32,000 nucleotides of DNA from Pseudodesulfovibrio mercurii (GCF_000189295.2 NC_016803.1:180001-212000), one strand, 5' to 3'; positions 6,099 to 22,145 are shown, numbered from the stretch's first letter. A program made the numbers and translations. The notes: generated by a model from the sequence alone, not told the origin.

Positions 6099-6102
<4 letters not shown>
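4615..6102 (+). CDS. PAS-domain sensor histidine kinase (cytoplasmic)
   Basis: ATG 4615 is preceded by GAGGAAG; the ORF-track start at 4531 lacks an RBS. PAS-like N-terminus (GIVVSLDLDGGIIHGNSELEHLSGY...). H-box FSAGVAHEINEPL. N-box VVNLVVNAIQA. G-boxes EDTGPGM and GSGLGLSV. Confidence 0.85.
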
Positions 6103-7445
<1,343 letters not shown>

Positions 7446-8619: not shown

Positions 8620-8640
8620 CGCAACTGCGGCCGGCCATGA

Positions 8641-8680
8641 AAAAGGGACGCGCGAACCTGTTTCGCGCGTCCCTTTTTTC
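8641..8680 (+). terminator. Rho-independent terminator
   Basis: gggacgcgcgaa / ttcgcgcgtccc: a 12-bp perfect stem with a 5-nt loop, followed by a T6 run and preceded by A4. It lies 22 nt after the stop at 8619. Confidence 0.85.
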
Positions 8681-8798
8681 ATGATTTTCGGCTGTGGCCG
8701 CTGTCCCGGTGCCCCGGTTTTCCGCCTTTCCGGCCATGTTCCGGTCCCGTTCGTCGGTCATTGTGCGCGGCAACCCGCATAGAAAAGATTGGATAAAT

Positions 8799-8831
8799 GG
8801 GCCGACCGGGGAATTTTTCCCCGGTCGGCCC
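8799..8831. repeat. Perfect 14-bp inverted repeat / hairpin in the intergenic region
   Basis: gggccgaccgggga-atttt-tccccggtcggccc. No T-run follows on the plus strand. On the minus strand it is followed by atttatcc. Confidence 0.6.
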
Positions 8832-9168
8832 GCGTCAGTGGGGCGGCCCCTGTTTTGCGCGATTCATCGTATTGCGAGATGGCGAGCGGCGATCCGGCAA
8901 ATACGACTTTCCACATCTGAAATTGTACATAACATAATAGTGATATTGGATATTATTATATACACACCGTAGTGGTGGAGGCCGGAGACATTGTCCGGGA
9001 GGGACGCTTTGCCTGCTTCTCAATCCACCTTCACTGGATGGGGAAGGGCGATCCGAAACAGGTTTGCGAGATTTTTTCTCTGGCCACAGCATTTCGATTG
9101 CAAAAAAAAGTTTCATTATAACGAGTAGATAGAATTATTTTTCCCGTCTGGGGCAATACTGTGGCGGA

Positions 9169-9184
9169 TGGCATGCTTTCTGCT
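9169..9184 (+). promoter_or_regulatory. Sigma-54 (-24/-12) promoter for the cytochrome-rnf operon
   Basis: TGGCATG-CTTT-CTGCT against the consensus TGGCACG-N4-TTGCW. GG and GC are separated by exactly 10 nt. Correct orientation, about 110 nt upstream of the likely cytochrome start. Confidence 0.65.
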
Positions 9185-9297
9185 CTTTGGCAAATTGATT
9201 GACTAATCAATCTAAACGTGGGAATGAAGCCGGGCGAAAAAAAGACGGGAGCAAATCCCGCGTGTGTAAAACCCTTTTTCGAGTGAGGATTGGCCAG

Positions 9298-9774
9298 TTG
9301 CAGAACAGATATTTCATCATATCAGCCATCGTTGCGCTCCTGTTCGCGGGGGCAGTGGTCGGCTACGCCATACCGATGGAAAAACAGGAAGTCCCGGCTC
9401 GGGTCATCCTGGACAACACCGGTGGCCGGATCGTGTTCGCCCACCAGGCGCACGCCGTGGAGTACGGGGGCGACTGTGTGGACTGCCACCATGACGGCGT
9501 TGAGGGCGAAAGCTACCTGCCGTGCGGGGCGTGCCATCCGGCGGAGTTCGACGAGCAGTTCCGCCTCAATCATCCCAAGGCGTTTTCGGATCAGAAGGCC
9601 TGCCTGCGCTGCCATGACGGCGTGCCCGCCGGCCCCCTGCCCGAAGACCAATGGCCGGACGTCGAGTCCATTCCCACACGGGGCGAGGCCTTCCACTCCC
9701 TGTGCATGGGATGTCACGAGGAAAACGGCGGTCCCTACGGCGACGACGCCTGCTACCAGTGTCACGCGAGGTAA
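9298..9774 (+). CDS. Membrane-anchored multihaem cytochrome c (five CXXCH motifs)
   Basis: Maximal ORF is 9199-9774. The sigma-54 promoter puts the transcription start near 9195. TTG 9298 sits 8 nt after GAGGA (9285-9289), so it is the preferred start; GTG 9283 is an alternative. TM anchor YFIISAIVALLFAGAVVGYAI. Haem motifs CVDCH, CGACH, CLRCH, CMGCH, CYQCH. Confidence 0.75.
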   Translation: MQNRYFIISAIVALLFAGAVVGYAIPMEKQEVPARVILDNTGGRIVFAHQAHAVEYGGDCVDCHHDGVEGESYLPCGACHPAEFDEQFRLNHPKAFSDQKACLRCHDGVPAGPLPEDQWPDVESIPTRGEAFHSLCMGCHEENGGPYGDDACYQCHAR

Positions 9775-9777
9775 TCC

Positions 9778-10923
9778 ATGCTCAAGATACGTTATTCACT
9801 TGATTTGGAGCTGACCAATTCCATCCGCGACATGGCGCTCCCGGAAGAGTTGCACTTTCAGGTGCGCAATCTCGTCGTCAAGACCAAGAAAGGCAGCGTC
9901 CTGACCAAGGGCGAGATCATCGCCGAACATCCCGCCCCGGGCGGCGGGGCCTACCACGCGGCGGTGGGCGGCAAGGTCACGGGCGTCAACTACCACAGCC
10001 TGATCGTGAACTGCACGGGCGGCGATGACGTCGTTCCCCCCGTGGACGTCAATTCCATGGGCAAGGGCGCGGAACTGCTGCGCGTCCTCCAGGGACTCGG
10101 CGTGGGCGTGAGCCAGCTCTCGGGCAAGGCCGAGGTCCTGGTCATCAACGGCCTGAACCCGGAACCGGGCGTGTCCGTGGCCCAGCAACTCCTGCGGGAC
10201 GGCCGCGAGGAACTGGCCGCGGGTCTGGCCCTGGCCCGCAGGCTGCTCTCGCCCAACCGCACGGTCCTGGCCGTGCCCAAGGGCGACGAGGTGACCATCC
10301 CCGGCGCCGAGAGCGTACAGGTCCGGGCCAAGTACCCGTACTCCCTGGACGCCCTGGTGGTCCGGGCCGTGACCGGCCGGGAATTTCCCGAGGACACCCG
10401 GGTCATGAACGTCATGGACCTCTACGACCTGGGCCGGGTGAGCCTGACCGGGCTGCCCATCACCGAGACATTGATGACCATCGCCGGGAACAATTACCGG
10501 GTGCCCATCGGCACGCCCGTGCGGCACATCCTGACTGTCCTCGGCCTGGAGACCCACCCCGGCGACTCCATCGTCCTGGGCGGGCCCTTCCGGGGCGAGG
10601 CCATCTACAGCCTGGACGAGGGGGTCAAGAAGACCGACTACGGCCTGTTCATCACCTCTTCGGACGCCATCCCGGCGGTCCAGGACGCGGCCTGCATCAA
10701 CTGCGGGGAGTGCGTCCTGCAATGCCCGGCCAGGGTCCAGCCGCACCTCATCAGCCGTTGCGCCGAGTACGAACGGTTCGAGGAGGCCGAGCGGTACGGC
10801 CTGAACAGCTGTTTCGAGTGCGGTTTGTGCGCCTTCAACTGCTTCGCCCGACGGCCGCTGCTCCAATACATCCGCTTCGCCAAGGCGCAGCTCAAGGCCA
10901 AGGGGCAGGGGGCCCAGGCCTGA
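9778..10923 (+). CDS. rnfC: Rnf complex subunit C-like protein (short form; two 4Fe-4S motifs retained, nucleotide/FMN motifs apparently degenerate)
   Basis: GAGG lies 7 nt upstream of ATG 9778. Its position as the first of rnfCDGEAB supports the call. C-terminal motifs CINCGECVLQCP and CFECGLCAFNC. INGLNPEPG stands in place of the canonical INGAECEPY. Confidence 0.7.
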   Translation: MLKIRYSLDLELTNSIRDMALPEELHFQVRNLVVKTKKGSVLTKGEIIAEHPAPGGGAYHAAVGGKVTGVNYHSLIVNCTGGDDVVPPVDVNSMGKGAELLRVLQGLGVGVSQLSGKAEVLVINGLNPEPGVSVAQQLLRDGREELAAGLALARRLLSPNRTVLAVPKGDEVTIPGAESVQVRAKYPYSLDALVVRAVTGREFPEDTRVMNVMDLYDLGRVSLTGLPITETLMTIAGNNYRVPIGTPVRHILTVLGLETHPGDSIVLGGPFRGEAIYSLDEGVKKTDYGLFITSSDAIPAVQDAACINCGECVLQCPARVQPHLISRCAEYERFEEAERYGLNSCFECGLCAFNCFARRPLLQYIRFAKAQLKAKGQGAQA

Positions 10924-10963: not shown

Positions 10964-11947
10964 ATGATGAACAATATGAATCCTCCCATTCTCAAAGCAA
11001 TGTCCGACGTATCGCTCAGGCTGACGGTTTCGCCGCCGCCGCACTGGCGTAGCGGGCGGACCATCCAGGGCATGATGCAGGCGCACCTGCTGGCCCTGCT
11101 TCCGGCCGTGGTCACGGCGGTGATCATGTACGGCTACCGCGCCATCTCGGTGATCGGCCTGGCCGGGACCGCGGCGGTGCTCACCGAAGTGGTCTGTCTG
11201 CGCCTCCAGAAGCGGGACGTGGACGTGGACAATTATTCGGCCCTTTACGCGGGCGTGCTCTTCGCCTTCCTGCTCCCGGTCACCGCGCCGTGGTGGCTGG
11301 TGGCCATCGGTGGCATCCTGACCATCGCCCTGGGGCGCACCGTTTTCGGCGGCTTCGGCTGCAACCCGGTCTGCGCCCCGCTGGTGGCCTGGGCCGTGTG
11401 TCGTTTCTCCTGGCCCGCGGCCATGGACATTGACCTCAACCTGGCGAACTACGTGGCCAACAGCCCAGTGGATCAGCTCATGCATTTCGGAGTGGGCAGC
11501 CTCCTCCAGTTCGACTACATGGACCTGTTCACCGGGCGGCAGCTCGGCGGCCTGGGTTCGTCACAGGTCATGGCCCTGGCCGCGGGCGGCATTTTCCTGC
11601 TCGCCGCCCGCTGGATCCGCCTGTTCATCCCGGTGGGCTTCCTCATCGGCGTGGCGGGCACGGCGACCGTGTACTGGGCCATCGACCCCACGGTCTACGC
11701 CGATCCCATGTTCCACCTGCTGGCGGGCAGCACCGTGTTCGGGGCCTTCTTCCTGGCGCCTGACGCGGCCTCCAGCCCGGTCGGCAAGATTCCCCAGACC
11801 GTGTTCGGCCTCATCGCCGGAGCCATGGTCGTGATCATCCGCGTGTACGGGGTGTACCCCGACGGCGTGCCCTTCGCCATCATGGTGGCGAACCTGCTCA
11901 GCCCGCTGTTGGACCGCCTCCGTCCCAAGTTCTTCGGAGTCAGATAA
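10964..11947 (+). CDS. rnfD: Rnf complex subunit D (NqrB-like polytopic membrane protein)
   Basis: N-terminus LRLTVSPPPHWRSGRTIQGMM is typical of RnfD/NqrB. Multiple TM helices. Synteny. Start is ambiguous among ATG 10964, 10967 and 10976. Confidence 0.85.
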   Translation: MMNNMNPPILKAMSDVSLRLTVSPPPHWRSGRTIQGMMQAHLLALLPAVVTAVIMYGYRAISVIGLAGTAAVLTEVVCLRLQKRDVDVDNYSALYAGVLFAFLLPVTAPWWLVAIGGILTIALGRTVFGGFGCNPVCAPLVAWAVCRFSWPAAMDIDLNLANYVANSPVDQLMHFGVGSLLQFDYMDLFTGRQLGGLGSSQVMALAAGGIFLLAARWIRLFIPVGFLIGVAGTATVYWAIDPTVYADPMFHLLAGSTVFGAFFLAPDAASSPVGKIPQTVFGLIAGAMVVIIRVYGVYPDGVPFAIMVANLLSPLLDRLRPKFFGVR

Positions 11948-11949
11948 TC

Positions 11950-12519
11950 ATGCGTGAAATCATCAATATGATCGTGGTTCTGTCGCTCATCTGCGCCGCC
12001 TCCGGGACCCTGCTGGTCAACCTGAAGCGAGCCACCAAGGACAAGATCGAACAACAGGTGCTTGTCAACGTCCAGGGCCCGGCCCTGATGACCGTGCTCG
12101 CCGGGTGCGACAACGACCCCATCGCCGAGCGCAAGATCGTGGACGGGGTGACCGTGTTCCCGGCCCGCCGCGCGGGCAAGCTCGTGGGCGTGGCCTTCGA
12201 GACCTTCGCCCCCGGCTACTCCGGGGACGTCGGGGTCATGGTCGGCTTCGACGTGGACGCGGACCGGCTCATCGGCATCGGCGTCACCACCCAGACCGAG
12301 ACCCCGGGCGTGGGCACGCGCATCATGAAGCCCGCCTTCCTCAAGCAGTTCAAGGGCCACAAGCTCGACTCCATGGCCCTGAGCTCCAAGGACGGCGACA
12401 TCGACGCCGTGGCCGGGGCGACCTATTCGTCCACCGGCGCGGTGGACGCGGTGCGCAAGGCCCTCGACCTGTACAAGGGCATCAAGCCGCAAATCGCCGA
12501 CCTCTGGCCGGCGTCCTAA
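11950..12519 (+). CDS. rnfG: Rnf complex subunit G (FMN-binding domain)
   Basis: Starts 2 nt after the rnfD stop. N-terminal TM. FMN_bind-type motif DAVAGATYSSTGAV near the C-terminus. Confidence 0.85.
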   Translation: MREIINMIVVLSLICAASGTLLVNLKRATKDKIEQQVLVNVQGPALMTVLAGCDNDPIAERKIVDGVTVFPARRAGKLVGVAFETFAPGYSGDVGVMVGFDVDADRLIGIGVTTQTETPGVGTRIMKPAFLKQFKGHKLDSMALSSKDGDIDAVAGATYSSTGAVDAVRKALDLYKGIKPQIADLWPAS

Positions 12520-12532
12520 GGAGAGCGATACA

Positions 12533-13225
12533 ATGAGTGCTTCCCTCAAGAAGGAATTCCTCAAGGGGTTGTGGGACGAGCTGCCGCCGTTCCGCGTGGT
12601 CCTCGGGCTGTGCCCGACCCTGGCCGTGACCTCCACGGCGGAGAACGGGTTCGGCATGGGCATGGCCGTGCTCTTCGTCCTGACCCTGTCCAACGCCATC
12701 ATCTCGGGCCTGCGCAAGGTCATTCCGTCCAAGGTGCGCATCGCCTGCTTCATCGTCATCGCGGCCTCCCTGGTGGTGGCCGTGGAACTGCTCATGCAGG
12801 CCTACACCTACTCCCTGTATCAGCGGCTCGGCATCTTCGTGCCGCTCATCGTGGTCAACTGCATCATCCTGGGCCGGGCCGAGGCCTTCGCCTCCAAGAA
12901 TCCCGTCCTGCCGTCCATCGCCGACGGCCTGGGCATGGGGCTCGGCTTCACCATGTCCCTGACCTTCCTGGGCGCGCTGCGCGAAGGGTTCGGCAACGGC
13001 ACCGTCTTCGGCGTGCCGGTGGCCTGGGACTCCTTCCAGCCCGCCCACTTCATGGTCATGGCCCCCGGCGCCTTCGTCTGCCTGGGACTGATCCTGGCGA
13101 GCATGAACGCGCTCAACCGTTACCTGAGCCGCCGCAAGGGCGAGCCGGAAACCGAGCCGCAGAACACGGCCTGCGCGTCCTGCGCGGGCTGCAACCTGTG
13201 CATCACGGCCAAGAGGGAGAGGTAG
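12533..13225 (+). CDS. rnfE: Rnf complex subunit E (NqrD-like)
   Basis: AAGGAGAG RBS. Signature VVLGLCPTLAVTS and LIVVNCIILGRAEAFA. Six hydrophobic helices. Confidence 0.85.
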   Translation: MSASLKKEFLKGLWDELPPFRVVLGLCPTLAVTSTAENGFGMGMAVLFVLTLSNAIISGLRKVIPSKVRIACFIVIAASLVVAVELLMQAYTYSLYQRLGIFVPLIVVNCIILGRAEAFASKNPVLPSIADGLGMGLGFTMSLTFLGALREGFGNGTVFGVPVAWDSFQPAHFMVMAPGAFVCLGLILASMNALNRYLSRRKGEPETEPQNTACASCAGCNLCITAKRER

Positions 13226-13228
13226 ATC

Positions 13229-13804
13229 ATGGATTACTTCATGCTGTTCATCTCGGCCATCTTCATCAACAACATCGTCCTGGTCCAGTATCTGGGCACC
13301 TGCCCGTTCATGGGCACGTCCAAGTCCACGGACGTGGCCATCGGCATGGGCGCGGCGGTCATCTTCGTCCTGCTCATGGCCACGGCCTTCACCTGGCCCC
13401 TCCAGCATTACGTGCTGACCCCCTATGGCATCGGCTACCTCCAGACCATCGTGTTCATCCTGGTCATCGCCTCCCTGGTCCAGTTCGTGGAACTGTTCCT
13501 GAAGAAGGTCATCCCGCCCCTGCATGCCTCGCTCGGTCTGTTCCTGCCCCTGATCACCACCAACTGCGCGGTCATGGGCGTGGCCATCATGGTCCAGCGC
13601 AGCAACTATTCGTTCGTCAAGGCGATGGCCTTCTCCCTTGCCTCTGGAGTCGGCTTCCTCATCGCCCTGGTCATCATCTCCGCCATCCGGGAGCGGCTCG
13701 ACGTCTCCCCGGTGCCGGTGGTCTTCCGCGGTATTCCGGTGGCGCTCATCACGGCGGGCATCATGTCGCTGGTCTTCCTCGCCTTCCAGGGCATGGCCGC
13801 GTAA
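13229..13804 (+). CDS. rnfA: Rnf complex subunit A (NqrE-like)
   Basis: Starts 3 nt after the rnfE stop. Signature NNIVLVQYLGTCPFMGTS and PLITTNCAVMG. Six hydrophobic helices. Confidence 0.85.
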   Translation: MDYFMLFISAIFINNIVLVQYLGTCPFMGTSKSTDVAIGMGAAVIFVLLMATAFTWPLQHYVLTPYGIGYLQTIVFILVIASLVQFVELFLKKVIPPLHASLGLFLPLITTNCAVMGVAIMVQRSNYSFVKAMAFSLASGVGFLIALVIISAIRERLDVSPVPVVFRGIPVALITAGIMSLVFLAFQGMAA

Positions 13805-13828: not shown

Positions 13829-15943
13829 ATGGTAGCCTCATCCATATTGGTTCTGTTTCTTCTGGGGTTGACGGCGGCCGCCATTCTGGCCGTGGCCTCC
13901 CGGATTCTCTACGTCAAGGAGGACCCCCGCGTGGCCAGGGTCGAAGCCTGCCTGCCCGGCGCCAACTGCGGCGGCTGCGGCTATCCGGGCTGCTCGGCGG
14001 CGGCCGCGGCCGTGGTCAGCGGCGACGCTCCGCCCGAGGTCTGCGTGGTGGCCAACCTGGAGACCTCGGCGCGCATCGCCGGGATCATGGGGGCCGAGGT
14101 GCAGTTCAAGGAGCCCAAGGTGGCCACGAACATATGCAGCGGCGGCTCCCGGGCCAACCTGCTGTTCGACTACAAGGGCGTGGAGGACTGCCGCGCCGAG
14201 GCGCTGCTCTACGGCGGCGAGAAGTCCTGCGGCATCGGCTGCATCGGGCTCGGCACCTGCGTCAAGGTCTGTTCGTTCAACGCCATTCGGTTGAGCGACG
14301 CGGGACTGCCCGTGGTGGACTGGAACGCCTGCCGGTCCTGCGGCAAGTGCGCCGAGGCGTGCCCCACCGGGGCCATCCGCATCTCCAGCGTGACCAGCGT
14401 GCTCCTGCACCTCAACCAGACCGACGACTGCCTGGCCCCGTGCATGCAGAAGTGCCCGGCCCAGATCAACGTGCGCCGCTACGTCCAGCAGCTCAAGCAG
14501 GGCGACATGCGCGGCGCGCTTCTGACCATCAAGGAGCACAACCCGTTGCCGCTCATCGTGGGCCGCGTCTGTCCGGCCCCGTGCGAAAACATCTGCCGGC
14601 GCAAGATCGTGGACGAGGGCGTGGCCATCCACACCCTGCAACGGTACGTGGCGGACTGGGAGATGCATTCGGGGACCCGCGTGGTCCTGCACTGCAATCC
14701 GCCCAGCGGCCACAAGGTGGCCATCATCGGCGGCGGTCCCGCCGGGCTGTCCTGCGCCTACTTCCTGCGCCGCGTGGGGCATGAGCCGGTCATCTTCGAG
14801 AAGCGTCAGCACATCGGCGGCATGATGCGCGGCGTCATCCCGGAATACCGGCTGCCCAAGAAGGTCGTGGACTGGGAGGTCCAGACCATCCTTAACCTCG
14901 GCGTGGAGACCCGCACCGGCGTGGCCTTCGGCCGGGACGTGACCCTGGCCGACCTTGAGAAGGAGGGGTTCGAGGCGGTCTTCATCGCCACGGGCGCCTG
15001 GAAGGTGCCCCCGCTCGGCATCGAGAACGACAACGCCGAGGGCGTGCTGGACGCCATCTCCTTCCTCTACGGCGTGGGCCGGGAATATACCGACCTGCGC
15101 GGCAAGACCGTGGTCGTGGTGGGCGGCAGCAACACCGCCATGGACGTGGTCCGCAGCGCCATCCGCCTCGGCGCCACGGCCATCGCCCTGGTGCCGAGCA
15201 TCCAGCGCAAGATGTCCGCCAACAAGGAGGAGATCCAGCGCGCCGTGGAGATCGGAGCCGACCTTCGCTACATGACCGCGCCCATCGGCCTGGTGGCCGA
15301 GGACGGGGCCGTGTGCGGCGTGACCTATTGCGACCTGGCCTACGACGACCCGGAAAAGGCCAAGGGCGGCCCCAACCCCGTCGCCGGGACCAAGTCCTTC
15401 GTGGCTGCCGACATGGTTATCGCGGCCACCGACCGTCTGGTGGACGACAGCCTGCTGCGCGACGCCGACGGCAAGCCTCTCTTCAAGATTGATAAGAAGA
15501 CCGGTGGGATCAGTGCAAACCCGACCACGTTGCAAACCGACATCCCCAACGTGTTCGTGGGCGGAGAAGTCCACACCGGCCGCAACATCCTCATACAGGC
15601 GGTGTCCGACGGACGCCGTGCCGCACGCTCCATCCACTTCTACGTCACCCAGGGAACGGTGCCGGAACCGGACAATCAGCAGGTCCAGGTCATCCCGGAA
15701 TCGATTCTCAAGGACATGCACGTAACATACTCCATCCCCAGGGTCCAAGAACCTCTGGTCAGCGTGGAGGAGCGGAAGCACACCTTCAAGGAGGAAGTGG
15801 CCGGTTCCATCACCTACGAAACGGCTCGGAAGGAGGCGAGCCGCTGCCTGCGATGCGGACTGACCTGTTACGACGCCGACGCCGGGGCCGAATACACCCG
15901 GGACGCCGACGTCAAGGTCATTGCCGAAGCGGGCAGGGAGTAA
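13829..15943 (+). CDS. rnfB: RnfB fused to a GltD-like (glutamate synthase small-subunit family) NAD(P)H/FAD iron-sulfur oxidoreductase, 704 aa
   Basis: AAGGA RBS. Residues 1 to about 190 are RnfB: TM anchor, CGGCGYPGCSAAA cluster motif, and ferredoxin motifs CIGLGTCVKVC and CRSCGKCAEACP. Residues from about 200 onward are GltD-like: CMQKCP...GRVCPAPCENIC, dinucleotide fold VAIIGGGPAGLSCAYFL...FEKRQHIGGMM...IPEYRLP, and a second Rossmann fold VVVVGGSNTAMDVVRSAIRLGA. The frame is uninterrupted. Confidence 0.8.
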   Translation: MVASSILVLFLLGLTAAAILAVASRILYVKEDPRVARVEACLPGANCGGCGYPGCSAAAAAVVSGDAPPEVCVVANLETSARIAGIMGAEVQFKEPKVATNICSGGSRANLLFDYKGVEDCRAEALLYGGEKSCGIGCIGLGTCVKVCSFNAIRLSDAGLPVVDWNACRSCGKCAEACPTGAIRISSVTSVLLHLNQTDDCLAPCMQKCPAQINVRRYVQQLKQGDMRGALLTIKEHNPLPLIVGRVCPAPCENICRRKIVDEGVAIHTLQRYVADWEMHSGTRVVLHCNPPSGHKVAIIGGGPAGLSCAYFLRRVGHEPVIFEKRQHIGGMMRGVIPEYRLPKKVVDWEVQTILNLGVETRTGVAFGRDVTLADLEKEGFEAVFIATGAWKVPPLGIENDNAEGVLDAISFLYGVGREYTDLRGKTVVVVGGSNTAMDVVRSAIRLGATAIALVPSIQRKMSANKEEIQRAVEIGADLRYMTAPIGLVAEDGAVCGVTYCDLAYDDPEKAKGGPNPVAGTKSFVAADMVIAATDRLVDDSLLRDADGKPLFKIDKKTGGISANPTTLQTDIPNVFVGGEVHTGRNILIQAVSDGRRAARSIHFYVTQGTVPEPDNQQVQVIPESILKDMHVTYSIPRVQEPLVSVEERKHTFKEEVAGSITYETARKEASRCLRCGLTCYDADAGAEYTRDADVKVIAEAGRE

Positions 15944-16039
15944 GCAAGACCATCCGAATGATCTCCCGATCGGGCCCGCATGCGCCTCACCCTTCGAGGA
16001 TAGCGCCCCCTGTCGCCCGCTGGACAGGCGCATGAAGCC

Positions 16040-16082
16040 GCAGCCCCGGACATCATACCGTGTCCGGGGCTGCTATTTTTTG
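16040..16082 (+). terminator. Rho-independent terminator of the rnf operon (shared convergent site with speA)
   Basis: gcagccccggaca / tgtccggggctgc: a 13-bp perfect stem with an 8-nt loop, followed by tattttttg. Confidence 0.85.
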
Positions 16083-16102
16083 GGGTCGGGGAGGCGGCGC
16101 GC

Positions 16103-18016
16103 CTACCGTTCGAGGTAGGTGTAGCCGTGCAGGCCGTTGCGGTAGGCCTGAAGGATTTCCCGCCGCTGGGCCGGGGTGATCAGCCCCTTGCGCACGCTGG
16201 CCTCGGCGGTCTCGCGGAAGCGGGTCAGCAACGCCTTGGTGTCGTATTCCACGTAGGACAGGACGTCCTCAACGGTGTCGCCCTCGAGTTCGCCGACAAA
16301 GTCGTACTTGCCGTTTTCGAGAATCCGGACCGTGACCACGTTGGTGTCGCCGAACAGGTTGTGCAGGTCGCCCAGGGTCTCCTGGTACGCGCCCACCAGG
16401 AAGACGCCGAGGTAGTACTCCTCCAGCGGCTTGAGGGCGTGCAGGGCCATGGTCCGGTTGACCCCCGCGCCCTCGATGAAGCGGTCGATCTTGCCGTCGC
16501 AGTCGCAGGTGATGTCGGCCAGGGACCCCTCGCGGGCGGGCTCCTCGTCCAGCCGGTGCACGGGCATGACCGGGAAGAGCTGATGGATGGCCCAGGCATC
16601 GGGCAGGGACTGGAACACGCTGAAATTGCAGTAGTAGATGTCCGACAGGGTGCGGGCCAGGCCCTCCAGCTCCAGGGGCAGGCTGGGCAGGTTCCGGGTC
16701 AGGGCCGCAATGGTCCGCACGGTCAGCCAGAAGACGTTTTCGCCCAGGGCGCGCTCGCGGAAGGAGATGATCCCCTGGTTGAAGGCCTGGCGGACCTCGT
16801 CCCGGTAGTAGAGGGCGTCGTTGAAGCTCTCCTGGACGTTGTCGCGGGTCAGGGCAAGCATGGTCTCGTGCAGGTGCCGGATGTGGATGTTGGTGTCCTC
16901 GGGCAGGGCTTCGGGCAGGGGCTCGGGCTCGAACCGCGCGGCATCGACCACGTTCAGGAGGAGCACGGAGTAGTAGGCCACCAGGGCCCGGCCGGATTCG
17001 GTGATGATGGTCGGGTGGTCCACTCCCTGCTCGTCGAGCACGGTCATGACCCCCTCGATGACGTCGGCGCAGTACTCGTGGACCGAGTAGTTGCGGCTGC
17101 TGGACAGGCTGGTCCGGGTGCCGTCGTAGTCCACGGCCAGGCCGCCGCCCAGGTCCAGGTAGCGCATGCCCGCGCCCTCGGCCGTCAGCCCCGCGTAGAT
17201 GCGGCTGGCCTCGGCCACGCCCGCGCGGATCTCGCGGATGTTCGGAATCTGCGAGCCCAGGTGGTAGTGGAGCAGTTGCAGGCAGTCGAGCATGTTCGCC
17301 TCGCCCAGGCGGTCGATGACCTCGATGATCTGGGTGGCGTTGAGGCCGAAGATGGAGCGGTCGCCGCCGGACTCCGCCCACTGGCCCGTGGCCTGGGACG
17401 AGAGTTTGGCGCGCACGCCGAGTATGGGTTTGACGCCCAGGGCCTTGGAGCGCTCGATGATCAGCGGCAGTTCGTTCGGCATCTCCACGACCAGCACGCA
17501 CTGGAAGCCGAGCTGGACGGCGTGCAGGGCCAGGTCCACGAATTCCTCGTCCTTGTAGCCGTTGCACACGAGCACGGCCTCGGGGTCGTTGTGCATGCCC
17601 AGGGCGGCGATGAGTTCGGCCTTGCTCCCGGCCTCGAGCCCGTGGTGGTACCTGCGGCCGTGGCGGGTGACGGCCTCGACCACCTGTTGCTGCTGGTTGA
17701 CCTTGATGGGGTACGCGCCGAGATAGGACCCCCGGTAGGCGAGCTTTTTCATGGCCTGGAGGAAGCTCTCGTTGAGCAGGGTGATCTGGGTGTCCAGGAG
17801 GTTCTCGATGCGCAGCAGCACCGGCATGTCCAGGCCGCGCGCCTGGATGCCCGCGATGATCTCGGGGATGGACACCGCCTCGGAGAAGTCGTCGGGCCGG
17901 GCGGTCACCTGCAAATCCCCGTTTTCGGAGACGCCGAAAAAGCCCGCGCCCCATTCCCGGACGCGATAGAGTCTTTCGGACCGTTCAACGGTCCATTTTT
18001 CCTGTTCCTGGGTCAT
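16103..18016 (-). CDS. speA: Biosynthetic arginine decarboxylase
   Basis: 637 aa. N-terminus WTVERSERLYRVREWGAGFFGVSENGDLQV and the overall length match SpeA. PLP-dependent Orn/DAP/Arg decarboxylase fold-III features: YPIKVNQQ lysine site, DLGGGLAVDY. GAGGGAGG RBS upstream of the ATG at 18016. Confidence 0.85.
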   Translation of the reverse strand: MTQEQEKWTVERSERLYRVREWGAGFFGVSENGDLQVTARPDDFSEAVSIPEIIAGIQARGLDMPVLLRIENLLDTQITLLNESFLQAMKKLAYRGSYLGAYPIKVNQQQQVVEAVTRHGRRYHHGLEAGSKAELIAALGMHNDPEAVLVCNGYKDEEFVDLALHAVQLGFQCVLVVEMPNELPLIIERSKALGVKPILGVRAKLSSQATGQWAESGGDRSIFGLNATQIIEVIDRLGEANMLDCLQLLHYHLGSQIPNIREIRAGVAEASRIYAGLTAEGAGMRYLDLGGGLAVDYDGTRTSLSSSRNYSVHEYCADVIEGVMTVLDEQGVDHPTIITESGRALVAYYSVLLLNVVDAARFEPEPLPEALPEDTNIHIRHLHETMLALTRDNVQESFNDALYYRDEVRQAFNQGIISFRERALGENVFWLTVRTIAALTRNLPSLPLELEGLARTLSDIYYCNFSVFQSLPDAWAIHQLFPVMPVHRLDEEPAREGSLADITCDCDGKIDRFIEGAGVNRTMALHALKPLEEYYLGVFLVGAYQETLGDLHNLFGDTNVVTVRILENGKYDFVGELEGDTVEDVLSYVEYDTKALLTRFRETAEASVRKGLITPAQRREILQAYRNGLHGYTYLER

Positions 18017-18177: not shown

Positions 18178-19581
18178 TCAATCCGTCGGGGAGGACGCCC
18201 CGTTCCGCTTGATGATCTTTTGCAGGCTGACCCGTTCAAGCCCGGCCAGGCGCGCCGCCTCCGAGATGTTGCCGCCGGTTCTGGCCAGAATCTGCTCCAG
18301 GTAGTTCCGGGTGAATTCGTTGAGCACCCGCGCCTTGGCCTCCTTGTAGGCGTCGATGCCGCCCTCGTCCGTCTCCCCGCCGCCGGGCCATGTCCCGTTG
18401 GGACCGGACAGCCGGCCCTCGGCCAGCCGCAGATGGACCATCTCCACCTGGTTGCCGGGGCAGAAGACCGTCAGGCGGCGGACGGTGTTCTGCAACTCGC
18501 GCACGTTGCCGTGCCACGGCCGTTCGCACAGGCAGGCGAGTACTTCCGGGCTCAGGGTCTTGGGGGCCAGGTGCATCTCCAGGCAGGTCTGGTTCAGGAA
18601 GTGCGCGGCCATGCGCGGGATGTCCTCGCGGGATTCCCTCAGGGGCGGGGTGTTCACGGTGAGCACGTTCAGGCGGTAGAACAGGTCCTCGCGGAACTCG
18701 CCCTCGCTGATGAGTTCCGGCAGGTTGCGGTTGGTGGTGGCCAGGATGCGCACGTCCACCTTGACGGCCGCGTTGCCCCCCACGGGCCGGATCTCCCGCT
18801 CCTGGAGCACGCGCAGGAGCTTGGTCTGCATGGACATGGAGATGTCGCCGATCTCGTCGAGCAGGATGCTGCCGCCGCAGGCCGAGACGAACAGCCCCTG
18901 GCGGGCCTTGTCCGCCCCGGTGAAGGCGCCCTTGACGTGGCCGAAGAGTTCGCTCTCCAGCAGCTGTTCCGGGATGGCCGGACAGTTCACGGCCACGAAG
19001 GGGCCCTTGGCCCGGCCGCTCAGGCGGTGGATGTTCCCGGCCACGAGTTCCTTGCCCGTGCCGGATTCGCCGCAGATCAGCACGTTGTAGTCCGAGGCGG
19101 CCACCGCGGCGATGGACTCCTTGAGGCGGCACATGGCCTGGGCCCTGCCCACCAGGGTGGATTCGCAGCGTCCGGCCAGGGCGCGCAGGGCGCGGTTCTC
19201 CCCGAGCAGCCGCCCGCGTTCCAGGCCCTTCTGCACCGAGCGCAACAGCTCGTCCCGTTTGACGGGCTTGGTCAGGAAGTCGTAGGCCCCGGCCTTGAGC
19301 GCGGTCACGGCGGCCTCCACGCTGCCGAAGCCGGTGACCAGGATCACGGTCAGGCCGGGTTCGATCTCCAGGGCCCGGTGCAGAAGCTCCTGGCCGTTCA
19401 GCCGGGGCATGCGCAGGTCCGAGAGCATGAGGTCCACGCCGCTCGACTTCAGGATTTCCAGGGCCTCGGCCCCGTCGCCCGTCAGGGATATCTCCACCTC
19501 GGGAAAGCCCGAGGCGATGAGCCGGGCCAACCCCTGGGCGAAATCGGGTTCATCGTCAACAATCAATATGCGCTGGCTCAT
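18178..19581 (-). CDS. Sigma-54-dependent (NtrC-family) response regulator
   Basis: Receiver: IVDDEP, LMLSDLRMP. Walker A GESGTGKE. GAFTGA loop. Walker B LLDEIGD. C-terminal HTH GNISEAARLAGLERVSLQKIIKR. The start overlaps the upstream kinase stop by 4 nt. Confidence 0.9.
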   Translation of the reverse strand: MSQRILIVDDEPDFAQGLARLIASGFPEVEISLTGDGAEALEILKSSGVDLMLSDLRMPRLNGQELLHRALEIEPGLTVILVTGFGSVEAAVTALKAGAYDFLTKPVKRDELLRSVQKGLERGRLLGENRALRALAGRCESTLVGRAQAMCRLKESIAAVAASDYNVLICGESGTGKELVAGNIHRLSGRAKGPFVAVNCPAIPEQLLESELFGHVKGAFTGADKARQGLFVSACGGSILLDEIGDISMSMQTKLLRVLQEREIRPVGGNAAVKVDVRILATTNRNLPELISEGEFREDLFYRLNVLTVNTPPLRESREDIPRMAAHFLNQTCLEMHLAPKTLSPEVLACLCERPWHGNVRELQNTVRRLTVFCPGNQVEMVHLRLAEGRLSGPNGTWPGGGETDEGGIDAYKEAKARVLNEFTRNYLEQILARTGGNISEAARLAGLERVSLQKIIKRNGASSPTD

Positions 19582-21974
19582 TCGGTTTCCTCGTTCTCCT
19601 TGACGGCCAGGGGCAGGAACACGCGGAACAGCGCGCCGCCGCCGGGCCTGTTTTCCACCTCGATGTCGCCGCCCAGATCGCGGATCAGGCTGTAGATCAC
19701 GGACAGGCCCAGCCCCGTTCCCTTGCCCGCCTCCTTGGTGGAGAAGAAGGGGTCGAACACGCGGTTGAGGTGTTCGGGCAGGATGCCGGTTCCGTTGTCG
19801 GCCACGGTGATGTCGGCGAAGCGGTCGCCCGCGGCGATGATGACGCGCACCTCGCCCGTGCGTCCTTCCTTTTCCTCCAGGCCGTTGACCGCGTCCAGGG
19901 CGTTCATGATCAGGTTGGTCAGGATGTGCTCAAGGGCGTCGTCGCTGGCCCGCAGCGGCGGTATGTCCGTGGCGGCCTCCAGGTGGAGTTCCGCTCCGCA
20001 CGACTTGGCCCTGGGCTGGAGCAGGTCCACCGTGGCCGAGGCCATGGCGGTCAGGTCGCCGGGTTCGAGGGAGACGGGGCGCGGCCGGCTGAAGTCCAGG
20101 AGGTCGCGGACCACGCGCTGGGCCATTTCCGTGTGGCGGATGATCACCGCCAGGTCCGCCTGGGCCTGGCCATTCTTCTGCGAGGCGGCCAGGAGTTCTG
20201 CGTAGCACAGGATGACGCCCAGCGGGTTGTTGATCTCGTGCGCCAGCCCGGCCGCGAGCTGTCCCACGGCGACCATGCGTTCGTTGCGGACCATCTGGTC
20301 CTCTATGCGCCGCTCCATGGTCACTTCGCGGAGGGAGGCCACGATGCGGCGGCCGCCGGTCTCCTCGAGCGGGTAGAGATGGGCCAGGAAGATGCGCCCG
20401 TCCGGCAGCTCGAATTCGCCGCAGCCCGTGTCGCGGGTGGCGTCCTGGATTATGTCCAGCAGGCTCGCGAGTCCGGGCTCGTCCAGGGTCTCGGCCAGGC
20501 GCACGGCCGGGGAGTTGGCCAGGAGCACGGCATCGCCCGCGTCCAGGAGCATGAGCGGGTCGGCGGTGCCCTCGATCAGGGAGGAGAGCAGGGCGTTCTG
20601 GGTCAGGAGCCCGTCCAGGGCCTCCATGTTCTCCATGGCGATGCCCATCTGCTGGCCGATGGCCCGGGCCAGGTCCACCAGCCGGTCCGAGCGCTCGCGC
20701 GGCTTGTCCCAGTAAAGGCTCAGGAGCCCCCGGCTGGTGCCCGAGGTCTGCACCGGGATGTGCCAGGACAGGTCGCCCATCCTGGGCTCGATCCCGGTGA
20801 CCAGGTCGTGCCAGTCCTCCGGCAGTTCCGGCGGGACGCCGGGGTCCGGCCAGGAGGCGTAGTCCGTGGCGGCCAGGACGCAGACGTAGCTCGCCCTGGA
20901 CGCGCCGAAGCGCCGGGCGATGAGTTCGAGTCCGGCGAGGAGCAGCTCCTGCTTGGTCTGGCTCTGGTTCAGGCTGTTCAGGAGCGAGACGAACAGGGCC
21001 ACGTCGGCGCGGCGGTCGTCGGCCAGCCGGGTCAGGTCCACGGTGCGCTCGGCCACCTTGTCCTCCAGGGTGGCGGCGTATTCCTTGAGGTCCACGCGCG
21101 CCTGGCGCAGATGTTCGGCAAAGAGCTCGAAGCCGTGCAGCAGCCCCTCGATCTCGTCCTGTTGGGACAGGAACGGCTCGGTCTGGAGGGGCGCCTCGTC
21201 CGGGAACAGGCGGTGCATGACCCCGGTGACCCGGTTTAGGCTGTGGACCACCAGGCGGTGGAAGAACCCCTGGATGATCAGGAACTGAACCAGGATGCCC
21301 ATGGCGAACAGCAGGGCGAAGGACAGGGTGGCGTCGCGGATGCCCCCCAGGTCGCGTTCGACCTTCAGCCGAACCATGTCGATGCCCGCCAGGCCGCCCA
21401 CCTGATTGCCGAAGCCGCGCTCGCCTCCGTAGCGTTCGATGAGTTCGTGCGGGGCCTCGGACCGGTCGCCGTGGCAGTGCATGCAGGAGGCGTCGTAGCG
21501 CTGGGCGTAGACCGTGATGAAGTAGCGTTCGCCGTCCGTTTCCCGGAACTCCTCCAGGTGCTTCAGCTCGGGGTCGGCCCGGAAGCGGTCGATGAATTCG
21601 CGTTCCAGGGCGTTGGCCTCGGAGTCGGGGTTGCGCGCGCCCTCGGTGACGCGGCGGTAGACGAAGCTGTCGTGCTCCAGGTTGGGGTCGCTCATGACCG
21701 CCCTGGTCACGTAGGAGGCGCTCATGGCCTCGAGCACGAACTGGTCGCTGGGCAGGGTCTTGTACATGACCGGGCGCAGGGTGTTGCGCACGTAACGCTG
21801 CACCGCCTCGACCTGGGCCAGGATGAGCGAGGCCTTTTCCCTCGCCTCTCCCTCCATGAGACGGTTGAGATGGATGTTCAGGCCCACGGCGAAGAAGGCC
21901 ACCAGGCCCGTCATGAGCAGGAACAATCCGGTAAAGAACTTGCTTTGCAGGCTGTGCGGCATGAGCCGGCGCAT
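19578..21974 (-). CDS. Sensor histidine kinase with a periplasmic c-type-haem (DUF3365-like, CXXCH) sensor, HAMP, GAF-like, PAS, HisKA, HATPase_c
   Basis: Start ATG at 21974 lies 6 nt after GGAGAGGG; the ORF track extends to 22100 without an RBS. TM1 FFTGLFLLMTGLVAFFAVGL. Sensor motif CMHCHGDRSEAPHELIERYGGERGFGNQVGGLAGI. TM2 ATLSFALLFAMGILVQFLII. H-box LAAGLAHEINNPLG. N-box NLIMNALDA. G-boxes DNGTGI and GTGLGLSV. Confidence 0.8.
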   Translation of the reverse strand: MRRLMPHSLQSKFFTGLFLLMTGLVAFFAVGLNIHLNRLMEGEAREKASLILAQVEAVQRYVRNTLRPVMYKTLPSDQFVLEAMSASYVTRAVMSDPNLEHDSFVYRRVTEGARNPDSEANALEREFIDRFRADPELKHLEEFRETDGERYFITVYAQRYDASCMHCHGDRSEAPHELIERYGGERGFGNQVGGLAGIDMVRLKVERDLGGIRDATLSFALLFAMGILVQFLIIQGFFHRLVVHSLNRVTGVMHRLFPDEAPLQTEPFLSQQDEIEGLLHGFELFAEHLRQARVDLKEYAATLEDKVAERTVDLTRLADDRRADVALFVSLLNSLNQSQTKQELLLAGLELIARRFGASRASYVCVLAATDYASWPDPGVPPELPEDWHDLVTGIEPRMGDLSWHIPVQTSGTSRGLLSLYWDKPRERSDRLVDLARAIGQQMGIAMENMEALDGLLTQNALLSSLIEGTADPLMLLDAGDAVLLANSPAVRLAETLDEPGLASLLDIIQDATRDTGCGEFELPDGRIFLAHLYPLEETGGRRIVASLREVTMERRIEDQMVRNERMVAVGQLAAGLAHEINNPLGVILCYAELLAASQKNGQAQADLAVIIRHTEMAQRVVRDLLDFSRPRPVSLEPGDLTAMASATVDLLQPRAKSCGAELHLEAATDIPPLRASDDALEHILTNLIMNALDAVNGLEEKEGRTGEVRVIIAAGDRFADITVADNGTGILPEHLNRVFDPFFSTKEAGKGTGLGLSVIYSLIRDLGGDIEVENRPGGGALFRVFLPLAVKENEETE

Positions 21975-22145
21975 GGGTATCCCTCTCCGATTTGCGGGAA
22001 GCATATGCGGGCGGGGGATCGAATGCAACTTGGGCGGGCCTGGCTGCGTCCTTCCGGTGGCAGGGTGTAGCCGCAAGGCAGCACCCACGGTCGGATTCAT
22101 TCAAAAATATTGTAGTATTTTAATGCGTTGAAAAATCAGATTCAT

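Follow-up and report, generated by a model that had tools for sequence, protein, structure and literature searches.

Rnf complexes are central to energy conservation in sulfate-reducing bacteria and are, by analogy with the acetogens, usually drawn as ferredoxin:NAD+ pumps (NAD+, nicotinamide adenine dinucleotide). A locus in the mercury-methylating Pseudodesulfovibrio mercurii raises the question of how such a complex works when its RnfB subunit carries an additional flavoprotein and its RnfC and RnfD subunits lack flavin sites. The locus is found in a window of 32,000 nucleotides (GCF_000189295.2 NC_016803.1:180001-212000; the window is the whole stretch of DNA analysed, and positions are counted from its first letter). 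An earlier note, made from this sequence alone, had proposed that one uninterrupted open reading frame (ORF) of 704 amino acids (aa) at the rnfB position encodes an in-frame fusion of RnfB to a GltD-like flavo-iron-sulfur module. The ORF is confirmed (Table 1), and the fusion is borne out by the Pfam and NCBIfam models, which split between the two parts, by the match to solved relatives and by the predicted fold.

The cofactor sites of the operon and their homologies suggest that the complex may act as a reversible, ion-coupled wire that joins a periplasmic pentahaem cytochrome to an electron donor or acceptor on the cytoplasmic side, at the large RnfB. The probability of this reading is put at roughly 0.55. 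An RnfB of this size, combined with RnfC and RnfD in stripped form, indicates that the acetogen analogy fails for a large and environmentally important group, which includes all Desulfobacteraceae (PMC11887813) and many marine Desulfovibrionaceae as well as P. mercurii.

A Large RnfB Encoded by a Single Gene

The large rnfB is found directly 3' of rnfA in an rnfCDGEA cluster. Its ATG start codon lies 25 nt past the rnfA stop codon, with an AGGA-type ribosome-binding site about 9 nt upstream, and the encoded protein matches a database entry from P. mercurii at 100% identity. Full-length homologues of about 700 aa form more than 100 protein clusters at 90% identity, and these come from many genera and from isolates as well as metagenomes. 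Homologues from Pseudodesulfovibrio, Maridesulfovibrio, Salidesulfovibrio, Desulfocurvibacter, Paucidesulfovibrio, Desulfobaculum and others are 55-88% identical to the window protein. When 80 rnf loci were fetched from species-representative genomes using RnfA as bait, 34 of them, all from independent genomes, were found to encode RnfB and the flavoprotein as a single ORF of 683-734 aa, located at the same position in each. They belong to the Desulfovibrionaceae, Desulfobacterales, Desulfocapsaceae and Geopsychrobacteraceae, and to two metagenome-assembled genomes (MAGs) of Phycisphaerales. The junction between the two parts (LLHLN..DCLAPC) is gap-free and conserved across the long RnfBs, and since the C-terminal tail provides cysteines needed by the module, the reading frame must be functional to its end.

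Residues 1-190 form a minimal RnfB with a transmembrane helix, an FeS domain and one 2x[4Fe-4S] domain. The earlier note described this part as a normal RnfB, which is correct for the membrane anchor and the CGGCGYPGC motif, but of the two strict CxxCxxCxxxCP ferredoxin motifs it listed only one is present (C168-C178), while the other reads Cx3Cx5Cx3C (C134-C148). The separate profile searches it suggested gave a clear division of the protein: the RnfB models of NCBIfam match residues 1-187 at about 165 bits, while Fer4_20 and Pyr_redox_2 match residues 202-588. TIGR01944 gives 75.3 bits for residues 1-190 alone and 66.8 bits for the whole protein (cut-off 68.7 bits; the cut-off of PF04060, listed in Table 1, is 23 bits). 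The PRK07118 and rnfB_Methano equivalogs, also at about 165 bits, stay under their cut-offs because the second half of these models has no counterpart here. Compared with solved structures, the RnfB part scores 162 bits to 9eri_B and 150 bits to 7zc6_B.

The homologues are annotated inconsistently, as 'FAD-dependent oxidoreductase', 'NADPH-dependent glutamate synthase beta subunit-like', 'formate dehydrogenase (NADP+) beta subunit' or 'RnfB'. Because of this, a comparative survey of the Desulfovibrionaceae from 2024 scored genomes as lacking rnfB, and the same gene was taken as a loss of rnfB with replacement by an FAD-dependent oxidoreductase (PMC11434368). The record should be corrected, as the gene is a long rnfB.

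The two Phycisphaerales loci (Planctomycetota MAGs; L033 7617-9758 and L067 7645-9780) encode long RnfBs with a canonical NADPH site. The small cytochrome is absent upstream in both, and L067 has a 16-haem ORF downstream. These genes could be the result of horizontal transfer or of mis-binning. In Bacteroidales (L023, L047, L048, L049, L055, L059, L070, L080) RnfB ORFs of 438-634 aa without any NfnB-like part are found; they may reflect N-terminal over-extension by longest-ORF calling, or real polyferredoxin extensions.

Flavin Sites of RnfC and RnfD

The operon had been described in the earlier note as a canonical rnfCDGEAB operon. This description does not hold, as a cytochrome c gene precedes rnfC, RnfC lacks the domain for NADH and flavin mononucleotide (FMN), and RnfD lacks the flavinylation site. 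RnfC of the window is 381 aa long and aligns to 7zc6_C and 9eri_C only from about residue 157 of these chains. Its score with the model of the FMN/NADH domain (Complex1_51K, PF01512) is 25 bits, under the cut-off of 31.2 bits, and it has no GxGGxxFP loop. Canonical RnfCs from the loci of Clostridia and Methanosarcinales score 167-191 bits with the same model, and none of the cytochrome-linked RnfCs tested from the loci exceeds 25 bits. None of the 25 loci that combine a long RnfB with a complete RnfC has the GxGGxxFP loop, and it occurs in 30 of 30 loci where RnfB is without the module. Three loci with a short RnfB and a decahaem cytochrome have no loop (L009 1992-3164, L011 666-1838, L021 3199-4419).

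A strict co-variation between loss of the NADH site in RnfC and gain of the module in RnfB was considered and rejected; it holds in one direction only, as short-RnfB operons are also found without the domain. Precomputed PF01512 tags would give some RnfCs of the short-RnfB type an intact domain, but for the proteins of Bilophila wadsworthia (P0128) and Desulfovibrio porci (P0181) the direct scan gave 21-28.5 bits, under the cut-off, and the match covers profile positions 17-129 only. The short-RnfB decahaem complexes thus have no recognisable NAD(P)H site at all, although the common depiction of Desulfovibrio Rnf is as Fd:NAD+.

The covalent-FMN motif of RnfD, D-x-x-[ST]-G-A-T-P-L, contains T156 of Acetobacterium woodii. 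It is present in 32 of 32 canonical loci and in none of the 39 cytochrome-linked loci, be their RnfB long or short; in the window protein the corresponding region lies at about residues 160-170. In the cytochrome-linked class 26 of the 92 positions that are conserved in canonical RnfD have been lost. A class-wide loss of the RnfD FMN motif was not found stated in the literature examined on these complexes. The flavinylation site of RnfG is kept in all loci compared. A multihaem cytochrome gene adjoins the rnf genes in nearly all long-RnfB loci and is kept beside rnfC across orders.

One of the short-RnfB loci, L009 (JAIWHJ010000018.1), is labelled Promethearchaeota. It contains a Desulfovibrionaceae-like rnf operon with a decahaem cytochrome, and its RnfA is 61% identical to that of the window; it is probably a mis-binned bacterial contig.

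The Flavoprotein Module

Residues 196-690, approximately, constitute a Fer4_20 domain and a module for flavin adenine dinucleotide (FAD) and NAD(P), and all the motifs quoted for it in the earlier note are present (CMQKCP, GRVCPAPCENIC, GGGPAGLSCA, IPEYRLP and VVVVGGSNTAMD). By profile matches and predicted fold the protein is a member of the GltD/NfnB/DPD-N superfamily (Fer4_20 and Pyr_redox_2). To this extent it is GltD-like as claimed, but it is not GltD proper. While residues 200-687 score 438 bits with PRK12771, 394 bits with PRK12814 and 284 bits with gltA in NCBIfam, the GltD models TIGR01317, TIGR01318 and TIGR01316 give 186, 247 and 284 bits, far under their cut-offs of 448, 483 and 472 bits. 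Furthermore, gltB is absent from the operon and the tested neighbouring genes (several other ORFs of the window have no family match), and the RCLRC segment is found at residues 672-676 and not N-terminally as in GltD.

By sequence, the nearest solved relatives of residues 192-683, approximately, are NfnA (9bov_A, 336 bits; 9n5u_A, 321 bits) and StnC (8oh5_C, 292 bits), followed by NfnB/NfnL (4ylf_B, 5jca_L), Xfn, GltD and DPD. An AlphaFold2 model based on an alignment of 42 homologues (mean predicted local distance difference test score, pLDDT, 84.4; predicted template modelling score, pTM, 0.83) ranks the relatives in the same way, with a TM-score relative to the target of about 0.8 for NfnB and GltD. 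The tail aligns to the N-terminus of classical NfnB (4ylf_B 12-43, 5jca_L 8-46), and also to the stretch located behind the flavoprotein of NfnA and StnC (aligned regions 9bov_A 96-573 and 8oh5_C 92-585). Since the tail matches the N-terminus of NfnB, the module is a circular permutant of the NfnB/GltD fold, and the alignments and the model place it closest to NfnA of NfnABC and StnC. The permutation allows the module to sit behind an N-terminal iron-sulfur (Fe-S) domain. Nine cysteines (201, 205, 209, 248, 252, 256, 673, 676 and 680) are invariant in the alignment of the Desulfovibrionaceae homologues, a number that suffices for both [4Fe-4S] clusters of this fold.

The module of StnC and NfnA binds NADPH beside its FAD, which accepts a hydride; the electrons then leave one at a time by way of two clusters and enter a longer Fe-S chain. 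The FAD of StnC has been shown to be non-bifurcating. The idea that the window protein uses another catalytic centre, a redox-active disulfide (C496-x4-C501), was rejected, as the pair is not conserved even inside its clade.

The Nucleotide Site and Two Groups of Long RnfB

The nucleotide site was compared among the 34 long RnfBs of the loci and 41 database homologues, which fall into groups that differ in how much of the NADPH site is retained. Every canonical NADPH feature has been lost in group I, the clade of the window protein. Group II (L010, L033, L067, L050, L054, L072, P0075, P0078, P0084 and related proteins) keeps all of them as well as a lysine ligand of the StnC type (LKRF), while Desulfocapsaceae-like and Tol2-like clades have lost part of them. 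In the window protein the canonical YRR, SGRRRP and GGGNTAMD are replaced by (gap)PS, KGGPNP and GGSNTAMD, and group I has GGE in place of GGD. Group I has also fixed the sequence IQRKM[SA]AN, which is invariant in the nine clade members from the loci and shows small variation in the wider homologues. Gln270 (TLQRYV) is found where StnC has Lys170 and NfnB has a Glu as ligand of the FAD-proximal cluster. This position is Q, H, L or E in the clade of the window protein only, while all long RnfBs outside it have LKRF. The nucleotide subdomain is modelled with confidence (pLDDT mostly above 88), and the other domains show 0.71-0.81 identity within the clade.

Groups I and II co-occur in some genomes. 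P. tunisiensis (CP094380.1, L081 3254-10097) has a second complete cytochrome-rnfCDGEA operon closed by a long rnfB of group II, and this operon has malic enzyme, fumarase and dicarboxylate symporter genes to one side of it and pta-ackA-PFOR to the other. D. africanus also has both groups (P0027, P0084).

As the arginines that bind the 2'-phosphate are gone in group I, NADH would be a likelier substrate than NADPH if a nucleotide is used. Probably the specificity of group I has changed in this direction, or the site has been repurposed; the sequence cannot decide between these two.

Proposed Electron Path

In A. woodii electrons pass from ferredoxin to RnfB and then via AE1, FMN-G, FMN-D and riboflavin to RnfC and NAD+. 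The pumping of Na+ has been assigned to RnfA/E with AE1, and not to RnfD. Mutation of the ligands of FMN-G, of riboflavin in RnfD, or of the cysteines of AE1 or B8 abolishes the activity. Compared with this type of Rnf, the complex encoded in the window lacks the FMN/NADH domain of RnfC and T156 of RnfD, but keeps the RnfA/E cysteines and the FMN threonine of RnfG. Since the flavin sites of RnfD and RnfC are gone while the first half of the path and a cytochrome facing the periplasm are intact, a route to cytochrome c is favoured, and the cytochrome c pool that the earlier note had suggested as acceptor fits this pattern.

The presence of these sites and their homologies can be read from the alignments. 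Which way the electrons flow, which nucleotide is used, the ion coupling and the part played by the clusters left in RnfC are proposed on this basis. A cytoplasmic donor would reduce the RnfB side, a nicotinamide nucleotide doing so via the FAD and ferredoxin possibly at the clusters of RnfB. From the FAD the electrons would follow the [4Fe-4S] chain to the RnfA/E cluster, continue to the FMN on RnfG, and reach the periplasmic cytochrome c, which would pass them on to the cytochrome c3/Qrc network. The whole path would be reversible, and RnfA/E would still couple it to ion translocation, as they do in A. woodii. The fused module would then serve as a two-electron entry or exit of the nicotinamide type on the ferredoxin side, replacing the site lost from RnfC.

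Several observations weigh against such a wire. RnfC of the window keeps eight Fe-S cysteines (306-316, 345-355), and RnfD keeps the Asp ('TD') of the riboflavin site. Loss of the latter site, which was also considered, is thus ambiguous, the likely equivalent of Asn123 being a Cys in what is an approximate mapping onto the A. woodii numbering. Given these cysteines and this Asp, a residual branch through RnfD and RnfC is possible. The cytochrome-linked operons with a short RnfB are likewise without flavin sites in RnfC and RnfD, so this loss does not have to be compensated by the fused module, which looks more like an added entry point. The cytochrome of the D. alaskensis G20 operon is dispensable in most conditions, and the literature search gave no biochemical study of any large RnfB.

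The nucleotide site itself adds to these objections. PfNfnI-B contacts NADP(H) through Arg253, Arg325 and Arg382 (PMC12221290), and pairwise alignment with solved relatives places Pro, Ser and Gly at these positions in the window protein. The second Gly of GxGxxA is Ser here and has been lost in most members of group I, and the glycine loop varies inside the clade (GGS, GET, GDT, GDG). Moreover, the nucleotide subdomain is the least conserved catalytic part of the protein; its identity is 0.59 among clade members and 0.25 in comparison with other clades. From the sequence, nucleotide binding by the group I module is thus unproven. The earlier note described the module as a built-in NAD(P)H dehydrogenase; this agrees with the oxidation of NADPH by the closest solved relatives, but is not assured for the window protein.

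Alternative Explanations

The same changes would fit a group I module that no longer binds NAD(P)H and has become an FAD/Fe-S relay or a docking platform (it might, for instance, convert between two-electron and one-electron transfer for a different donor or acceptor) or a structural extension, leaving ferredoxin as the only cytoplasmic substrate. The loss of three arginines and, mostly, of the second Gly, the variable glycine loop and the strong divergence of the nucleotide subdomain all agree with this, as does the replacement of the lysine cluster ligand in group I alone. The canonical group II paralogues in the same genomes are consistent with functional divergence. This explanation is nevertheless considered unlikely. 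The subdomain is still well conserved and has a confidently predicted fold, IQRKM[SA]AN is near-invariant, basic residues are kept, and the FAD loop and the arginine of IPEYRLP are intact. Loss of arginines that bind the 2'-phosphate is also the classic signature of a switch from NADPH to NADH, which counts against a dead or repurposed site.

It is somewhat less likely again that the NAD(P) site has merely been relocated, and that the U-shaped path from RnfB over RnfA/E, RnfG and RnfD to RnfC still operates. RnfC would in that case dock ferredoxin or another carrier, the cytochrome would be an accessory, and the enzyme would be a ferredoxin:NAD(P)+ oxidoreductase with its ends swapped. The eight cysteines kept in RnfC and the Asp of RnfD would be explained, as would the dispensability of the cytochrome for G20 fitness in most conditions, and the behaviour of G20 strains mutated in Rnf is what a ferredoxin-linked pump would lead one to expect. 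However, the covalent-FMN threonine of RnfD is missing in all 39 cytochrome-linked loci, 26 of the 92 conserved positions of RnfD have been lost, cofactor mutations along this path inactivate the A. woodii enzyme, and the cytochrome gene has been maintained beside rnfC across orders.

Bifurcation or confurcation at the FAD on RnfB, where the electrons of NADPH would be split between ferredoxin as the low-potential branch and a branch of higher potential leading through the Rnf membrane chain to the cytochrome, is improbable. The fold is that of NfnB/NfnL, the arginine equivalent to R201 of NfnB is conserved (in IPEYRLP), and stand-alone NfnB is capable of Fd:NADP+ chemistry. On the other hand, StnC and NfnA share this arginine and are non-bifurcating, the site-differentiated ligand differs from both the NfnB Glu and the StnC Lys, and the contacts to NADPH are missing. 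Domain annotation of the operon genes shows no [2Fe-2S]/FAD partner like NfnA or NfnS, and the confurcating arrangement mentioned in the earlier note is thus unsupported.

The possibility that rnfB and a separate gltD-like gene have been joined artificially by a missed stop codon or a frameshift, for which only the inconsistent NCBI names ('FAD-dependent oxidoreductase' and 'RnfB') and the reading as rnfB loss in the 2024 paper could be cited, is refuted by the recurrence of the single ORF in 34 loci and more than 100 protein clusters, by the gap-free junction and by the tail cysteines that the module requires.

Cytochrome-Linked Rnf Complexes as a Class

The wire reading can tentatively be widened in two respects, although the two together are somewhat doubtful. 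The cytochrome-linked Rnf complexes of Desulfobacterota, including the short-RnfB forms of Bilophila and gut Desulfovibrio, may as a class not be ferredoxin:NAD+ oxidoreductases but, after loss of the FMN/NADH site of RnfC as well as the covalent FMN of RnfD, ion-coupled wires from the cytoplasm to a periplasmic cytochrome. In addition, the large RnfBs of Desulfovibrionaceae may consist of two paralogue groups, of which group II has the canonical NADPH site while the site of group I uses NADH or a partner that is not a nicotinamide. Both parts go beyond the literature found. If they are true, one organism could link different cytoplasmic redox pools to the cytochrome pool by means of two parallel pumps. 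If the module is a nicotinamide-nucleotide site, these complexes would couple NAD(P)H, ferredoxin or both directly, and with ion translocation, to the cytochrome c3 network of the periplasm, which would be a missing link for transmembrane electron flow during growth on H2 or formate and in syntrophy. Concrete leads that can be tested are the division into groups I and II and the absence of the RnfD flavin site throughout the class.

Relation to Known Systems

The architecture is not new; both the large RnfB and the same hypothesis are already in print, and the window protein is a Desulfovibrionaceae group I member of the Rnf2 type. A 'D. toluolica Tol2-type Rnf' with an RnfB of about 700 aa containing NAD-binding sites, and with an RnfC that has neither the NADH-ubiquinone-oxidoreductase nor the SLBB domain, was described by Doerries et al. 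(2016; PMC5109826), where the type is traced to Woehlbrand et al. (2013). A paper in Science Advances from 2025 reports Rnf2 in all Desulfobacteraceae and in 'Dv. salexigens', with proteomics showing abundant production in the Desulfobacteraceae, and proposes that electrons pass from ferredoxin (perhaps NADH) via Rnf and cytochrome c3 to Qrc (PMC11887813). A search for literature on RnfB joined with GltD or glutamate synthase gave nothing relevant.

The Tol2-type/Rnf2 operons (Desulfobacula toluolica Tol2, Desulfococcus multivorans and others) share with the window an RnfB part of about 200 aa followed by a domain of about 500 aa of the pyridine-nucleotide-disulfide-oxidoreductase type, an RnfC without the NADH/FMN domain, an upstream gene for a small multihaem cytochrome c, and the gene order. 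The flavoprotein parts are, however, only about 31-35% identical, and the nucleotide site reads GGSNTAMD and PSIQRK in the window protein compared to GGGxAxxE and RK-RS with a deleted loop in the Tol2-like proteins. The window also belongs to the Desulfovibrionaceae, which apart from Dv. salexigens are mostly assigned to 'Rnf1' in PMC11887813.

NfnA of the Bfu-type NfnABC (9bov, 9n5u) and StnC of StnABC (8oh5) have the same permutation as the window module, the same tail after the flavoprotein ('RK..F.E...EA.RCL.CG'), an Fe-S domain in front, and FAD with two [4Fe-4S] clusters that feed a wire. Their chains run on into NuoG/FdhF-like domains and bind bifurcating subunits of the HydBC type, whereas the window module ends the protein and its wire leads to RnfB. 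The window module also lacks the equivalents of their YRR, GRRRP and Lys170. With NfnB/NfnL, GltD and the N-terminal domains of DPD it shares Fer4_20, the two-Rossmann fold, the FAD loop and the arginine of IPEYRLP, but the 45 residues that are N-terminal in those proteins are found at the C-terminus here, and neither an NfnA nor a GltB partner is present.

The arrangement has a logic similar to that of Na+-NQR, where a membrane-anchored FAD/Fe-S dehydrogenase (NqrF) holds the position of RnfB and the RnfC homologue NqrA has no nucleotide or FMN function. Weak NqrA_2nd matches are found in the cytochrome-linked RnfCs. NqrF, which is unrelated to NfnB, is of the FNR type and carries a [2Fe-2S] cluster, and NQR keeps a covalent FMN on NqrB and reduces quinone. 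RnfD of the window, in contrast, has no covalent-FMN site, and the likely partner is cytochrome c. The NQR analogy has also been raised in PMC11434368. Rnf/MmcA of Methanosarcina likewise has a multihaem cytochrome c as partner on the periplasmic side, but in the Methanosarcinales loci Complex1_51K (191 bits) and the GATPL motif are kept and RnfB is short.

Operon Layout and Flanking Genes

The operon has the order cytochrome-rnfC-D-G-E-A-B and is bounded on both sides by terminator-like hairpins (Table 1). Five CxxCH motifs are found in the cytochrome, and its N-terminal anchor is a hydrophobic stretch around residues 36-60. No apbE/rnfF gene for a flavin transferase was found after rnfB (window 15944-18016), unlike the rnfCDGEABF operon of G20, and the next gene is a convergent speA, encoding a biosynthetic arginine decarboxylase (16103-18016).

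Table 1. Features of the rnf operon and of its large RnfB in the window.
Feature	Position	Strand	Basis or remarks
Terminator-like hairpin ending the upstream gene, 5' limit of the rnf unit	8639..8679	+	18-bp stem, then a T-run
Pentahaem cytochrome c (class III/c7-like), membrane-anchored	9199..9774	+	Cytochrom_CIII 47 bits; start codon uncertain
rnfC, stripped form	9778..10923	+	2x[4Fe-4S] cysteines kept; Complex1_51K 25 bits
rnfD without covalent-FMN motif	10964..11947	+	Equivalent of DxxSGATPL reads VANSPVDQL
rnfG (DVU2794 type), DAVAGAT flavinylation site, N-terminal anchor	11950..12519	+	RnfG_DVU2794 275 bits
rnfE, Cys27 and Cys110 as half of the membrane [2Fe-2S] site	12533..13225	+	Match to A. 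woodii AE1 ligands
rnfA, Cys25 and Cys113 as other half of the membrane [2Fe-2S] site	13229..13804	+	Match to A. woodii AE1 ligands
Large rnfB, 704-aa fusion protein	13829..15943	+	Uninterrupted ORF, ATG start
RnfB N-terminal transmembrane helix, aa 2-26	13832..13906	+	Hydropathy windows, residues 1-28; AlphaFold2 helix 2-26
RnfB FeS domain, CGGCGYPGC (47-55)...C72, aa 42-73	13952..14047	+	PF04060 49-52 bits; invariant in 35 sequences
RnfB 2x[4Fe-4S] ferredoxin-like domain, aa 134-184	14228..14380	+	Pfam 4Fe-4S dicluster match 138-184
Fer4_20-type helical domain, aa 196-285, Cys201/205/209/248/252/256	14414..14683	+	Pfam Fer4_20 202-281, 78-86 bits
FAD/NAD(P) two-Rossmann module, aa 294-610	14708..15658	+	Pyr_redox_2 296-588, 78-80 bits; GGGPAGL, IPEYRLP, GGE replacing GGD
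Nucleotide-binding subdomain with derived fingerprint (GGSNTAMD; LV-PSIQRKMSAN; KGGPNP)	15089..15493	+	Alignments
C-terminal tail ERKHTFKEEV...EASRCLRCGLTCY, aa 645-685, with Cys673/676/680	15761..15883	+	Alignment to solved NfnB-type proteins
Strong terminator-like hairpin ending the operon	16040..16073	+	Hairpin scan

To either side of the operon there are sigma-54-dependent response regulators, and next to one of these lies a histidine kinase (6099-7445 on the plus strand, 18178-19581 and 19578-22100 on the minus strand). A sigma-54 promoter was considered for the operon because of these regulators. The sole site near the operon start, the weak -24/-12-like TGGCAT-N5-CTGCT at 9169-9184 a short way 5' of the cytochrome gene, has two mismatches and was rejected; with 8 matches found against 14.5 expected, sites of this kind are no commoner than chance. 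An ORF of 92 aa (8694-8972, plus strand) without any Pfam or NCBIfam match is located after the upstream terminator and before the cytochrome gene. It overlaps two sigma-70-like promoter matches (8910-8956), and the region may be non-coding leader or promoter DNA.

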